Source of the DNA: an uncultured Nitrososphaerales archaeon
Lineage (GTDB): Archaea; Thermoproteota; Nitrososphaeria; Nitrososphaerales; Nitrososphaeraceae
Direction: 5' to 3'
DNA: 64,000 nt
Assembly (NCBI GenBank): GCA_963695855.1
Contig: CAVOHZ010000008.1
Coordinates: 352,001-416,000 of the forward strand
Every line of letters starts with the position of its first letter. Position 1 is the stretch's first letter. Shown one piece after another: positions 18,179-25,596 of the stretch. The translations under genes and the position numbers were made by a program. A model generated the notes under the pieces. That model saw only the letters and a list, made by a program, of their open reading frames with translations, was not told the DNA's origin and searched no databases.

Positions 18179-18374
18179 GATACTCTTATAAACAATTTAT
18201 TGATTTAAAACAGTAAATACTCAGATTTTATGCCGAATACTGACTACAAAGAATTCTTTATTCTGTTTTTGGTGGTACCAAGTAATTTGAAACTGGTGAT
18301 CCATGATGATGAATTATTAACCATTTTTTTTTTGTTATCATATTCAAAAATGTTCGTTGCAACTACTACATGCT

Positions 18375-19379
18375 GTTCTGAATCTGGATATGTCTCCTAT
18401 CTCAGAACTAATGAGCATTGCAGAAAAATAGTCTATTCCTGTCATACTCATTAGTATCTTTACGTTTTCATTTTGAGATGCCTCAGTGGATATCTGTTTT
18501 TCAATCTGTTTGATTTCAGAATTTAGAAATTCAATACTGTGAATGTAGTTTACAAGTTGAATCTGGTCATTACCTTTTAATTCGATATTCTTTAGTCATT
18601 GTATACCTTTTAAACCGAATATATGTCCATAATTACATGTTAGATCATATTTATCAAGTAAGGAATGTACTCTATTCATAACTCTGGTTCTATCAGATAC
18701 TAGGTTTATTCTCAGTCGTAGTAGAGATCTATCTTCTCTTACCTTATCTGGAGCAATATATGATTCTGCAATCAAGTTAGATCGTAGTAGATGTGCTAAT
18801 GTTCGTGCATCGAGTTTATCTGTCTTTATCCTTGCTTCTGCTATTGCCTTGGTCTTCATTGGATTTGCCAACTTAACATCTATTCCATGTTTCTCAAATG
18901 CCTCGTATGTCTTGAGCCACATGTTGGCTGTTGATTCGCAAACAGCCTGACATTTTCTGTTAATATACTTTTTACCCAAATTAGAAGCAAATCTTTTTGC
19001 TTCTTCTAGTGTATTTTCATATTTTGTTTCCTCTATTATGGAACCATCTTTATCTGTAATACATACGACGCAATTTCTCTTTCCAATATCTACTGCAATA
19101 TAGTAATCATCATCATTACTATTTTTTGATTCTATTATTTTTTCTATTTTTATTCTCTTTCTCACCTCCTTTTTTTATTATGACACTATTATCAGTATAC
19201 CAACTAACCAGCAAAGCTGCAAACATCTATCAGAGCTCTTTTGATGGCTCATTTATACAGCAGCTAACATACATCCCCATTCAACAAGCAAGATCTTATC
19301 ACAGAAAGATAGATCACGCACAACAAGGGGTTAGTCAGTTGGATAAGAGAATAGATAACAAGAAAACACTTTTACATGT
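18375..19379 (-). mobile_element. IS110-family element B, 3'-truncated; recombinase pseudogene
   Basis: IAVDIGK, CEST and KTDKLDA (DEDD RuvC-like). In-frame TGA at 18596-18598 is followed by ...KILMSMTGIDYFSAMLISSEIGDISRF, then homology breaks off near 18375. Confidence 0.88.
19200..19342 (-). ncRNA. Putative bridge RNA of IS110 element B
   Basis: Outer stem CCAACTGAC/GTTAGTTGG. Two stem-enclosed internal loops (CCCC..GGGG and AGCTGC..GCAGCT). Loop segment 19279-19288 equals the element flank at 19380-19389. Confidence 0.7.
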
Positions 19380-21627: not shown

Positions 21628-22072
21628 TAAAGTAAAGCAGGAAAGGGTGCGTATTTAATTAGATTATTATTTTCCCTGAGACAATATCTTACATCTTTTT
21701 CTAATGAGTCGATTCGATTTCCTACAAACTTCCTACTAAACTTTATAATCTCATTAGGGTCAGAAAAGAATTTCATGAATTTATACACTTCATAAATCCT
21801 TTTATAATAATAAAATTTATCCTAATACAGTTAATATAATAACATTGTTCTAATAAAAAAGGAAATAATTTAGTAAAAGCATTTAGTAAATATGAATTAA
21901 TATTTGATCATGTAACTTTCAAAATGAACTCTGCTTTGGTTGGATCGTTTTTGATTAATTTTCTCCAAATCTAAAAGGTTAGTAGATGAATAACAGGTCT
22001 TGACATTACCTTCATTAACAAATTAAATTAAATTAAATTATAATTTATTTCATTAATCAAACCCATTTACTC

Positions 22073-22399
22073 TTAGTATTTAGTCATGTCTTCAATCAAT
22101 TTTATATCTTTTTCATCTACACCTTCAAGGCATTTAAAATCCTCAACATCCAAACCTAATTCTTTTTTTAGGTTTTGTATTCTATTAGCATACTTGATTT
22201 CATTATCAAATTCACCTTTGTTAAGAGCAATAGAATAACCTACCCAGCATTTGTGTAGAGCGCCCCACGTTTGACTGTCGTAATATGATGAATTTAAAAT
22301 TTTATGATATCTACTACCTTCTCTATAATATCTACCAGGATTAAATCCATATTTATAAAGATATCCAGGATAATATCTTCTATATTTATGTGAACGCAT
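22073..22399 (-). CDS. Hypothetical protein (Tyr-rich, 108 aa)
   Basis: ATG ORF preceded by TATA-like TTATAAA; function unknown. Confidence 0.65.
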   Translation of the reverse strand: MRSHKYRRYYPGYLYKYGFNPGRYYREGSRYHKILNSSYYDSQTWGALHKCWVGYSIALNKGEFDNEIKYANRIQNLKKELGLDVEDFKCLEGVDEKDIKLIEDMTKY

Positions 22400-22917
22400 A
22401 CTAATAATTATTTTATCTTCTAAACTATTTATAATTTAAAATCAAGGGGTTTGGATGGAAAAATATTCAATTCTAAATCTATTATATTTCTTGCAATATT
22501 TTTAACATTTTAGAAATTTGAAGACAGAAGTGGTAATATACTTCCTCATGAGTTTTCAAGATTTATAATTGTTTCTCCCATCTTCCACCATTATCTTCCC
22601 ATGTTTCATTTATTTTATCATGTTTTTCTATTTCATAACTATCTTCCGCATAAGTTATGTTATACTCATATTCATCTTGAAGATTTGTATTTTCAGGAGT
22701 GCAATTACCATCATCCCATTCTCCATGGTAATAAGGATAGATCTCTTCCTTGTCATTATCATTGATGATACTTGATGTTTTTCCATTAAACTATAACATA
22801 TTATATTATTCTACAATTTTTTATAACAAACATATTTTATTAATATTATTAGATTTAAACAATCAGAAAATCAGGCTCTGACGATATGAAAATCTTTTAG
22901 TCTGTTTCATTACTGTA

Positions 22918-23042
22918 TGTTGGCTAGGTTCAAAATTAACATACTCCGTATGAGAGTGAGGCTCTGACTGAACCGTATCTGTGAAGTGGCTATCATAGTA
23001 CCCTTCGAGGGTGGATGGATGTTTGCCACCTGTTAGCCAACA
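22918..23042 (+). ncRNA. Putative bridge RNA of IS110 element A
   Basis: Outer stem TGTTGGCTA/TAGCCAACA. Loop 1 is closed by GGTTCA/TGAACC and loop 2 by GTGGC/GCCAC with hairpin ACCCT-TCG-AGGGT. Loop 1 segments match both flanks of the element. Confidence 0.8.
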
Positions 23043-23070
23043 AATAAAAAAAGAAGGTGAATAAAAATAA

Positions 23071-24151
23071 TTGAATCATCTTGGAATAGATGTTGGAAAG
23101 AAAAAATGCAGCGCAGCACTAAAAGATGATAGAGGCAAGACACTGGATGAATTCTTCTTTGGTAACAATTCTGATGGAATATTAGAACTGATTGAAAGGA
23201 TACACAATCATGGAACAAAAAAATGTAATGCAGTACTGGAATCTACAGGAAACATGTGGATGAGAATACATGATATATTGGAAGATAATGGAATAGATAC
23301 AGTACTAGCAAATCCATACAGAACAAAGATAATAGCACAAGCAAAGATAAAATCAGATAAACTTGATGCACGTATATTATCTGATCTGCTGAGAACTGGA
23401 TTGGTATACGAGTCATATGTACCTGTAAAGAAAGGAATTCAGAGAAAAAAGAAGTCTGGTCAGACATAGAATAGTCTTGTCTAGAACCAAGACAAAACTT
23501 GCAAACAAGGTACATGCTATTTTAGACAAATATGAGTACAGAACAGAGCTGACAGACATATTCGGTAGATCGGGAATTGAGTGGCTAAAATCACTCTCAG
23601 TTTCACCAATAGACAGGATAATACTGAATACAACACTAACATCCATAGAATCGATAGATAACCAGATAGAAATAGTATCAAAAGAGATAGCAAAATACGC
23701 ATGGAAGGATAGTCAAGATGTAAAGATACTTCTCAGCATGACAGGAATAGACGTATTTTCTGCAATGCTGATATCAACGGAAATAGTGGATATCACCAGA
23801 TTCTCTACACCATGGAAACTTGTTAGTTATGCAGGATTATCTCCATCAACAAGAGAATCATCTGGAAAAACAAAAACAGGTAGAATAACCAAACAAGGAT
23901 CACCATTATTAAGATGGATACTAGTACAGTGTTCATTATCTGCAGTAAGACATGACCGTCACATGAGAACCTTCTATGAAAGAATCAAACAGAGAAAGGG
24001 ACATGGGAAAGCAATAGTTGCAACAGCAAAGGAGGTGCTTATTATAATATGGTACATGCTAACAAGACACCAATTGTATAGATACATGAATAGAACAAGG
24101 TATGAACAGAAACTGGAAAGTCTGAAGAAGAGTGGATCGCAAGAAAGGTAA
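23071..24151 (+). pseudogene. IS110 recombinase split by a 4-bp duplication
   Basis: LGIDVGK, LEST, KSDKLDA, then YAGLSPSTRESSGK and GRITKQG. AAAG is duplicated at 23427-23434; removing one copy restores VPVKEFREKRSLVRHR. Confidence 0.9.
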
Positions 24152-24314
24152 CAATTAAACAAAAAAGACAACGACCTCAGAGAACAAGGATGTCATATAT
24201 AGCGGAGGCTATTGCTAATAATGCTTAATAGATAGAAAAACATAACAAAATGAGGCTAAACAGGATAGAAAAGATAACCAGCATACAGGTAGATTTTCAT
24301 GGATGTTAATTTAA

Positions 24315-25233
24315 GAGCCTATCCCAAAAATAGATAGGAATATAGCTCCTTTGTTTCTTATCATATCTGATAATGTTTAAGAGTGAAAAATATGTTAGAA
24401 GTATTACATGTATTCCAGATGATCTTTGGAATGAAATTACAAATATTTTCCCTTTTGAAAAACCATAGAATACAATAGGGCGTCCCATTATTCCTTACAG
24501 AGAAGTATTTGATGGTATCCTGTTTGTCTTGAGAACTGGATGTCAATGGAAAATGTTACCCAAAGAATATGGTTCTGGTTCTACATGTCATAGAAGATTT
24601 CGAGAATGGAGAGAATCAGGTATATTTGATAAATTATGGAGCAGATTATTAAAATTATATGATTTAAAGAAAGGAATAAAATGGAACTGGCAGTCACTTG
24701 ATAGCATCTCTATAAAATCGCCTTTAGGGGGGCGATGACAGGTCATAATCCTACTACAGATAGAAGTAAATTAGGTAGTAAAAGACATATTTTAACAGAT
24801 AAAGATGGTATTCCCCTTTCAACTGTTATAACATCTGCATATACTCATGATGTTACTGTTGCAACAAATACAATTGATAATATTGTTATCAAAAGACCAC
24901 CACCTTCATCATCAATAGCAAAATATAGAAACAAGAAGAAGAATAAGAAAAAGCAGAATCTATGTCTTGATAAAGCATATCATTCCAAGGAAATAGAACA
25001 AGAAGTTATCAAAAGAGGATATATTCCACATATACGACACAGAAGAGAAGAAAAGAAATACAGCAATAGACATCCTGCAGTAAGAAGATGGGTGGTAGAG
25101 AGAACAAATTCTTGGCATAACAGATTCAGAAAATTATTTACAAGATATGAAAAGAAGGATGAGAACTATCTTGGTCTTGTACAGTTAGCAAATAGCATAA
25201 TTGTTCATAGGAGGTTAATTTTGGGGTAGGCTC
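24315..25233 (+). mobile_element. IS5-family (IS1031/IS427-like, two-ORF) element
   Basis: IRs GAGCCTATCCCAAAA and TTTTGGGGTAGGCTC, TAA duplication. ORFs overlap at TTAGGGGGG (possible -1 frameshift). LDS, DKAY and RWVVERTNSW motifs. Confidence 0.92.
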
Positions 25234-25596
25234 TAAGTACTTTGTTATCTGACCTACCCTATCAATCTGACAAAAATTTTTTGTCTAGTAAAATATTTTT
25301 AATAAATTCAAAATCAATATCTTTTTAAATTAAGTGAAATAGTAACAAATACTGATTTTACAAAAAAAATTTATAAAGAAAAGCATAAAAGAAATTTTTA
25401 GAATTGACAATTTAATAGCTCGATATATGGCAGTCTTGGATAATGTCTGTTACATTTATTGATTCGTCTTTTTTAGTAGAAAATTCTACCTGAGTAATAA
25501 ATTACAAAATTTATAACTAAATAATTAATCTGAATAATTCTAGATTAAATGTTATTTAGGTTTGTATCCCAATACTAATATAGATTTAATCCACAT

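Follow-up and report, generated by a model that had tools for sequence, protein, structure and literature searches.

A defective IS110-family insertion sequence of an ammonia-oxidizing archaeon with a predicted guide RNA addressed to transposon ends

RNA guidance of the IS110 family has been in print since 2024, and the matching NCBIfam family is already named 'RNA-guided transposase'. For IS621, Durrant et al. (2024; PMC11208160) described guides that address both strands, with the core present in all of them, and Hiraizumi et al. (2024; PMC11208158) described handshake guides, 2 nt located 3' of the core that, once the strands have been exchanged, pair with the opposite partner. The account of the IS1111 seekRNAs by Siddiquee et al. 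(2024; PMC11187229) covers elements with 7-bp and 3-bp extensions and subterminal repeats, the latter suspected of a role in end recognition, and places the top-strand complement in the RNA 5' of the bottom-strand match; it also lists ISMtsp17, an IS1111 relative with an upstream noncoding region, and ISHvo10 and ISAcp5, which have both positions. Five members of the family (PMC11187229), and IS621 (PMC11208160), have been shown to depend on the RNA, and a catalog of archaeal IS110 recombinases counts 662 in 2,835 genomes (10.1101/2024.06.21.599552). Here, we analyzed a 64,000-nucleotide stretch of DNA from an uncultured Nitrososphaerales archaeon (the window; positions without a prefix refer to it). 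Its segment 22879-24303 is very probably a defective IS110-family insertion sequence (IS) of the IS1111 type, moved by RNA-guided site-specific recombination, to judge from its own letters and those of its relatives. The mechanism being known from bacteria, the element is a well-supported archaeal example of it.

The window belongs to a 3.55-Mb genome in 11 contigs (G000; C3, C8, and C10 are contigs of it). The original prediction, made from the window alone, had placed the element at 22873-24312 and had called attention to two 10-nt matches between its 5' region and its junctions. Both matches were confirmed letter by letter: AGGCTCTGAC at 22959-22968 recurs at 22873-22882, and AAATTAACAT at 22933-22942 is the exact reverse complement of ATGTTAATTT at 24303-24312. 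AGGCTCTGAC occurs twice in the window against 0.04 occurrences expected, and none of 100 shuffles reached two or more. ATGTTAATTT also occurs twice, against 1.35 expected and with at least two in 41/100 shuffles, and what makes its match significant is solely where it lies and the covariation described below. The proposed limits did not stand. Copies of the element in G000 all read GGCTC-TG-AC(G/T)AT on the 5' side and (G/A)GA-TG-TTAA(N)TTAAG on the 3' side, and insertion-free sites of that genome read GGCTC-TG-TTAAGTTAAGG or, as the whole repeat, GGCTCTGTTAAGTTAAGG. Since TG alone is common to both junctions and the empty site, TG is the core, and the empty sites set the limits, one core counted, at 22879 and 24303 (TGACGAT-ATGAAAATCT ... 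AGATTTTCAT-GGA). GGCTC or a covarying variant lies directly 5' of all 12 copies in G000. The terminal extensions measured 7 bp on the left and 3 bp on the right in 18/18 complete elements and had the same lengths in haloarchaeal and Rhizobium relatives.

The original prediction had instead assumed an AT core, an empty site GGCTCTGACG-AT-GTTAATTT (also written AGGCTCTGACG-AT-GTTAATTT; uninterrupted form, GGCTCTGACGATGTTAA), a circle junction TTTTCATGG-AT-ATGAAAA, and recognition of 10 + 10 nt. Both junctions do contain AT, and the window shows the 10-nt identities without a mismatch, yet we leave this version next to no probability. A search for its empty site with up to two substitutions returned nine matches, and all nine were occupied left junctions; GACGAT is absent from the true empty sites. 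The surplus letters are accounted for by the overlap at TG, by the extensions of 7 and 3 bp, and by the handshakes (PMC11208158, PMC11187229): AC and A, the extra matched positions, are handshake positions inside the element, which explains why the identities appeared too long. Target recognition would involve about 5-6 + 2 + 7 nt.

The nature of the target emerged from the flanks. The right flanks of four copies run into a repeat of ~118 nt, a MITE (miniature transposable element with inverted repeats). Among the 18 MITE copies listed, 6 adjoin the element, and the end is unbroken in the other 12, GGCTCT followed by GTTAAGTTAAGG, with a matching inverted repeat at the opposite end of these copies. 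G000 contains 93 such ends at up to three substitutions, many of them bounding elements of ~725 bp that encode DDE_Tnp_IS240 (IS6 family), which identifies the ends of IS6-family elements and of their MITEs as the target. More precisely, it is the terminal inverted repeat of these elements, entered 7 bp inward of its outer end. Empty sites that match the guide of the window copy exactly, GGCTCTGTTAATTTAAG, are present at G000:C8:197395 and G000:C10:910430. Insertion into targets of this kind accounts for some of the nesting of transposons in these repeat-rich genomes. The members of the 93-site family share the end GG(N)(N)CTGTTAA(N)TTAAG (examples are C10:105336-106058, C3:255295-256690, and C10:1227642-1227760). 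The two ends of the IS6/MITE elements differ by one letter (G versus C), and the two forms are matched by the C and G variants of the RNA guide.

We had first considered that the conserved flanks, GGCTCTGAC(G/T) and GTTAANTTAAG, belong to the element, that its true ends lie further out, and that the RNA loop merely reads the element's own ends. The same ~10 nt do stand on each side of every copy in G000, and no empty site of the originally proposed form exists. This reading was rejected because the MITE and IS6 ends were found, and we now hold it to be very improbable: the two halves are joined without the element at 12/18 MITE ends and at many IS6 ends (GGCTCTGTTAAGTTAAGG), the sequence outside differs between copies, two relatives (L031 and L043) sit in quite different flanks that match their own loops, and a separate loop appears to match the real ends.

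The predicted RNA upstream of the transposase gene has two internal loops (Table 1), and the first, here loop 1, carries both target halves. Its segment 22959-22966 has the letters of the top strand, and 22933-22941 is the complement of the top strand, namely, the reverse complement of 24304-24312. In 17/18 copies, the handshake letters of the loop, AC, are identical to the two leading nucleotides of the left end. The variable letter of the 5' guide, AA[A/C/G]TTAACA, pairs with the copy's own right flank (T/G/C) in 9/12 copies in G000, and the same A/C/G rule is obeyed in 3/3 of the elements L025 to L027, which come from other genomes. Changes also occur in flank and loop alike: GGTCC in one transposase-less copy (C8:187912), GGTGC in L027, and ATTATT-TG-TTAT in L043. 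In L031, like L027 and L043 an element of another genome, the flank AGTTG-TG-TAAAC is answered by AAGTTG plus the reverse complement of TAAAC in the loop. Several relatives thus appear to have been naturally reprogrammed on both target halves. Over 18 complete copies from seven genomes, guide and own flank agree at 203/234 positions, compared with 171.1±4.3 for permuted flanks (0/20,000 permutations reach 203), and over 17 nonredundant copies they agree at 191/221 versus 159.9±4.4, a test that overstates independence, as the copies are kin and about six independent matched changes carry most of the signal. In the sister copy of the window element at G000:C10:166435-168913, the right target carries a G at a position for which the guide calls for A, and a G·U pair could result.

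The same data bear on another explanation, that the protein itself picks the target, for instance the inverted repeats of IS6 elements, that the upstream structure is an mRNA leader or regulator, and that loop and flank are similar by descent. Most copies share one target family, so much of the match may indeed reflect common ancestry. We judge this explanation improbable in the face of the matched two-sided changes (GGTCC, GGTGC, AGTTG/TAAAC, and ATTATT/TTAT, together with the A/C/G letter of the right guide), of handshake letters that change in step with the right target (UA where the target has TA, in L031 and L032), and of the RNA dependence demonstrated for the family members cited above. 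Other copies and relatives are inserted at sites in agreement with their own loops.

Guidance by the RNA is therefore the reading kept here, and the second loop, loop 2, would extend it to the element's own ends. The 3' side of loop 2 reproduces the right end plus the core (ATGGA or ATAGA, then TG) in 16/18 copies with G/A covariation, and it turns to ATAGA exactly in the four transposase-less copies whose right end is CATAGA. The handshake that follows, UU or UA, agrees in 17/18 copies with the two letters that open the right target. The 5' side (UAUC, UAUA, or UGUC against left ends GATA, TATA, or GACA) matches at positions 5-8 in 14/18 copies as scored by script, one of the four misses being an anchoring error of the search pattern. 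This side is the weakest part of the model. Its reading as a full complement of left end plus core was rejected, as only 4 letters and one further A-U pair were found, and an alternative register, TCATA, was dropped because it fits one subfamily and not the transposase-less copies. By analogy with the IS1111 elements, end recognition may be achieved partly through the 10-bp repeats.

We then examined the fold of the RNA. A closing stem, 22920-22924 with 23036-23040, encloses two stem-loops with one internal loop each, and the outer stem with two internal loops that had been proposed for 22918-23042 folds at -45.4 kcal/mol. The support from an alignment of 19 left ends from 13 genomes (one row being from the unpublished genome G035) was much better than that from the single sequence. 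For the 30 pairs, 88.6% of cells are paired, compared with at most 42.3% when partners are slid. Ten of the 30 pairs change on both sides in a compensatory manner (5.0±1.6 in shuffles; 1/500 shuffles reaches 10). Two G·U pairs are kept in 17/19 and 18/19 rows; because the opposite strand would give A·C there, the RNA is assigned to the plus strand, that of the transposase gene. The resulting covariance model, R1, finds 14 copies in G000, 12 of them at 116 bits or more and 2 decayed, and the RNA region is present in 33/121 genomes of the same family, spanning 9/18 genera.

The gene that follows codes for a transposase of the expected kind. In agreement with the original prediction of a split IS110 transposase with a 4-bp duplication, 23071-23469 matches DEDD_Tnp_IS110 (PF01548; 70 bits, cutoff 29) and 23477-24151 matches Transposase_20 (PF02371; 79.4 bits, cutoff 21.3), and the AAAG AAAG duplication at 23427-23434 is missing from intact paralogs. 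An intact paralog (L002:1704-2771) scored 223.3 bits (cutoff 140) with NCBIfam NF033542, 'IS110 family RNA-guided transposase', and matched the solved IS621 and ISCro4 transposases. The catalytic D, E, D, D and Ser are kept in the columns GID, (L/I)E(S/A)TG, K(S/T)DxxDA, and ES(S/G) shared with IS621 chain 8wt6_A; equating them with D11/E60/D102/D105/S241 rests on motif position, as the chain numbering is offset. The nearest plasmid-borne protein relatives are haloarchaeal (38-40% identity) and from Rhizobium (36-39%), and the enterobacterial IS5708, IS1618, ISEc45, and ISShdy1, at ~23-25% identity, were useless for placing the protein. The host is an ammonia-oxidizing archaeon because its genome encodes an archaeal AmoA at 390.9 bits, matched in 0/14 control genomes, which upholds the earlier assignment to Nitrososphaerota; an archaeal small-subunit (SSU) model (1490.8 bits) was dropped as a marker since it also matches 14/14 control genomes.

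G000 has five full-length copies, including the window copy, plus some fragments. Two are intact, one is interrupted, and two are frameshifted. The intact copies lie at C10:929328 and C8:48403 and encode transposases of 356 aa (G000:C10:929531-930598 and G000:C8:48610-49677). The interrupted one is the sister copy named above, the 5' region of which is 100% identical to that of the window element and which contains ~1 kb of inserted DNA. Owing to its 4-bp frameshift, the window copy cannot make transposase; it could move only with the enzyme of the two intact paralogs. IS110-family paralogs were also detected by full-length tblastn at 42% protein identity (n = 2; G000:C10:287645-288700 and 289954-291009) and at 34% (n = 3; C10:140729, 267175, and 1598722). 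A second, different IS110-family relic lies on the minus strand at 18368-19323, with 44.8% tblastn identity to the intact transposase over 18368-19102, and just upstream of it is a weak R1 match at 19199-19323 (19.7 bits, E = 0.0076).

The boundaries, the empty site, the covariation of guides with targets and ends, the covarying fold, and the protein family, all as observed above, fit the following course of events. The upstream RNA of ~130 nt would fold into two stem-loops with internal loops. Loop 1 would read the insertion site GGCTC-TG-TTAA(T/G/C)TT, and its AC letters would pair with the incoming element end after strand exchange, as a handshake. Loop 2 would read the abutted ends in the excised circle, ...CATGGA-TG-ACGATA..., with its TT as the handshake to the target. 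The circle junction would be ...CATGGA-TG-ACGATATG..., or, in a longer form, ...AGATTTTCATGGA-TG-ACGATATGAAAATCT..., with a TG core in place of the AT once proposed. Exchange would take place at the TG core with no further duplication, and the landing place would be the ends of other transposons (IS6/MITE). The circle intermediate, the recombinase's binding of the RNA, and the sequence in which strands are exchanged are inferred from published work on IS621, ISEc11, and ISEc21. Of the original interpretation, then, the RNA-guided IS110 kind, with one loop complementary to both site strands and with copies and relatives that match their own loops, is borne out by the sequence comparisons, while the core and boundaries had to be replaced, and the donor loop and the transposon-end target had been missed.

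Several observations, besides the kinship of the copies, weigh against this interpretation. The single-sequence fold barely beats shuffles (z = -1.79; 11/200 shuffles fold equally well). The 5' side of loop 2 pairs with only four contiguous left-end letters, is not complementary to the TG core, and reads AG or AC where CA is expected. The variable right-target letter is mismatched in 3/12 G000 copies. The window copy is a pseudogene, and beyond the first 9 nt of its right flank, with a neighboring IS5 element removed, no recognizable IS6/MITE body follows. In G000, six sites that the guide of the intact copies would match perfectly are still unoccupied, which argues for low activity. The RNA is known here through sequence, its transcript being presumed, and a scan of 22000-25500 against Rfam 15 (E up to 10), a release that may hold no bridge-RNA family, gave only chance-level matches, none of them on the RNA (PsrR1, for example, reached 24.2 bits, its gathering score being 42). 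The metatranscriptome libraries from soil and rhizosphere, stored throughout as contigs, had no more than small shares (5-8% of words). Three RNA-library runs from one study each yielded three to four contigs that cover portions of relatives' transposase genes, 88-99% alike, and none on 22883-23065; as contigs cannot show small RNAs, they are uninformative on transcription and circles. One run, probably of DNA, covers 22883-23065, and the public runs report no joints, which is likewise uninformative on circles. The 4-bp duplication at 23427 is missing in one RNA-library contig and one probably-DNA contig, so these two come from open-frame relatives.

Seven further copies in G000, of 316-353 bp, lack the transposase; what they keep is the left end with the entire 5' RNA region and, on the other side, ~130 bp from the right end (minis; Table 1). 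Four of them are 97-100% identical and occupy four different sites. In the main mini family, ends and guides have changed together: the left end TGACTAT goes with the guide UAUA and the right end CATAGA with the guide AUAGA. No full-length partner with mini-type ends was found in G000. The seven minis may be self-addressed guide-RNA MITEs, which would combine their own RNA with recombinase borrowed from the two intact copies and specify both cargo and destination; we advance this tentatively, with confidence falling somewhat short of even. If true, the minis would live as parasites on an RNA-guided transposon which is in turn a parasite of IS6 ends, in an archaeon. Literature searches retrieved no description of guide-carrying miniature elements of this sort, and we consider them the part most worth following up. 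The mini at C3:465600-465757 has a 23-nt tandem duplication of the 3' target guide segment, so that loop 1 contains two GGCTCTGAC copies.

Table 1. Coordinates of the element, its predicted guide RNA, and the minis (window positions unless a G000 contig is given)
Feature	Position	Strand	Remarks
Left target half GGCTC	22874-22878	+	Outer 5 nt of IS6-type terminal inverted repeat
Left terminal extension TGACGAT, 7 bp	22879-22885	+	First 2 letters are the left TG core; from occupied/empty comparison
Left subterminal inverted repeat ATGAAAATCT	22886-22895	+	Perfect reverse complement of 24291-24300
Predicted bridge/seek RNA gene, ~130 nt	22913-23046	+	Upstream of transposase, same strand; R1, 151.9 bits
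Target-binding loop (loop 1)	22927-22974	+	Outer stem GGTTCA/TGAACC; inner stem TACTC/GAGTG
Loop 1, 5' side, AAATTAACA (AAATTAA-CA)	22933-22941	+	Predicted to complement top strand of core and right target, TG-TTAATTT
Loop 1, 3' side, AGGCTCTGAC (A-GGCTC-TG-AC)	22959-22968	+	Left target, core, and 2-nt handshake AC
Predicted donor-binding loop (loop 2)	22986-23029	+	Outer stem GTGGC/GCCAC; inner stem TACCC/GGGTG
Loop 2, 5' side, TATCATAG	22991-22998	+	TATC predicted to pair with GATA of left end
Loop 2, 3' side, GATGGATGTTT (G-ATGGA-TG-TT-T)	23014-23024	+	ATGGA, right end; TG, core; TT, handshake to right target
IS110-family DEDD transposase pseudogene	23071-24151	+	Split by 4-bp AAAG duplication at 23427-23434
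Right subterminal inverted repeat AGATTTTCAT	24291-24300	+	10 bp, perfect
Right extension GGA, 3 bp	24301-24303	+	
Right TG core	24304-24305	+	
Right target half TTAATTT	24306-24312	+	
Mini	G000:C10:1354506-1354846		Approximate
Mini	G000:C10:1746111-1746451		Approximate
Mini	G000:C10:1407616-1407952		Approximate
Mini	G000:C8:113674-114014		Approximate
Mini	G000:C3:465563-465921		Approximate
Mini	G000:C8:187905-188225		Approximate
Mini	G000:C3:37350-37676		Approximate

The right end of the window element has two further features. A hairpin, TATAGC-N4-GCTAT, lies at ~24195-24215, ~90 nt 5' of the right end, and is kept in full-length and mini elements. The right flank is broken after 9 nt by an IS5-family element at 24315-25233, which encodes DUF4096 and DDE_Tnp_1 with a frameshift and has the inverted repeat GAGCCTATCCCAAAA, a TAA duplication, and ~50 related copies in G000.

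Among the known systems, IS621 resembles the window element in its DEDD plus Ser recombinase, in an upstream RNA on the same strand with one loop for the target and one for the abutted ends (a predicted role in the window element), in loops that each read both strands with an overlap at a 2-nt core, and in 2-nt handshakes on the 3' sides. The two differ in polarity, since the 5' loop side of IS621 pairs with the bottom strand beside the left end and that of the window element with the top strand beside the right end. They also differ in the core (CT in IS621 and TG here), in the subterminal repeats (2-3 bp and 10 bp), and in the 5' side of the donor loop, which in the window element pairs only weakly. 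The protein similarity is low (E = 5.8e-9, two short stretches). Of the features of the narrow, IS621-like IS110 group, the window element thus shares the upstream RNA position and departs in repeats, polarity, and core. The IS1111 elements with seekRNAs, ISEc11, ISPa11, ISKpn4, and ISPst6, share with it the subterminal repeats, the 7/3-bp extensions, the mirrored guide order, and the lack of an extra duplication. Their repeats are usually 11-13 bp, one more at least than the 10 bp found here, and their RNA lies downstream of the transposase, whereas it lies upstream in the window element and in a haloarchaeal relative.

The mixture of an upstream RNA with subterminal inverted repeats, noted in the original prediction, is therefore real. 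IS1111-type ends with an upstream RNA are a rare arrangement and have been reported before: ISMtsp17, compared here through its published description, is likewise of the IS1111 type with a long noncoding region upstream. The haloarchaeal case is an element on a Halanaeroarchaeum plasmid (38% protein identity) with the same layout, GGCCT-TG-ACTCT-ATGAAGTCGC and GCGACGTTCAT-AGG-TG-TTTAGAC. Both of its target halves are spelled in the upstream RNA, and R1 detects this RNA with 23 bits (E = 0.0011). A single bacterial relative was compared, on a Rhizobium plasmid (37% identity); it has 7/3 ends and a long noncoding region downstream, in which a by-eye search for guides gave only a left-half match, TTGAGGAGA. 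From these sequences, the upstream RNA seems to be a feature of an archaeal branch of IS1111-like elements. The IS1111-type geometry of 7/3-bp extensions, mirrored guides, and TG core would then work with an upstream RNA in Nitrososphaerota and haloarchaea, a matter relevant to how the RNA gene changed element ends as the family evolved.

Two other systems resemble parts of the picture. IS4321 and IS5075 are likewise site-specific ISs that insert at a fixed position in the terminal repeat of another transposon; they differ in the host transposon, which for the window element is predicted to be an IS6-family element or MITE in an archaeon, entered 7 bp from the tip. The minis have a counterpart in MITEPpu9 of ISPpu9 from Pseudomonas putida, which is also short and transposase-less, has the ends of its parent and a small RNA gene, and forms circles. 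Its RNA, Ssr9, is described as not needed for transposition and not the guide (PMC12288879), whereas the minis of ~330 bp carry the guide RNA in full, both loops included, and it fits their own variant ends. Beside these systems, the window element and its relatives offer a clean natural archaeal example of targeting by a bridge/seek RNA, with empty, occupied, and reprogrammed sites all present in genome data, and the intact 356-aa recombinase with its ~130-nt RNA, from a mesophilic archaeon, is a further candidate for programmable recombination.

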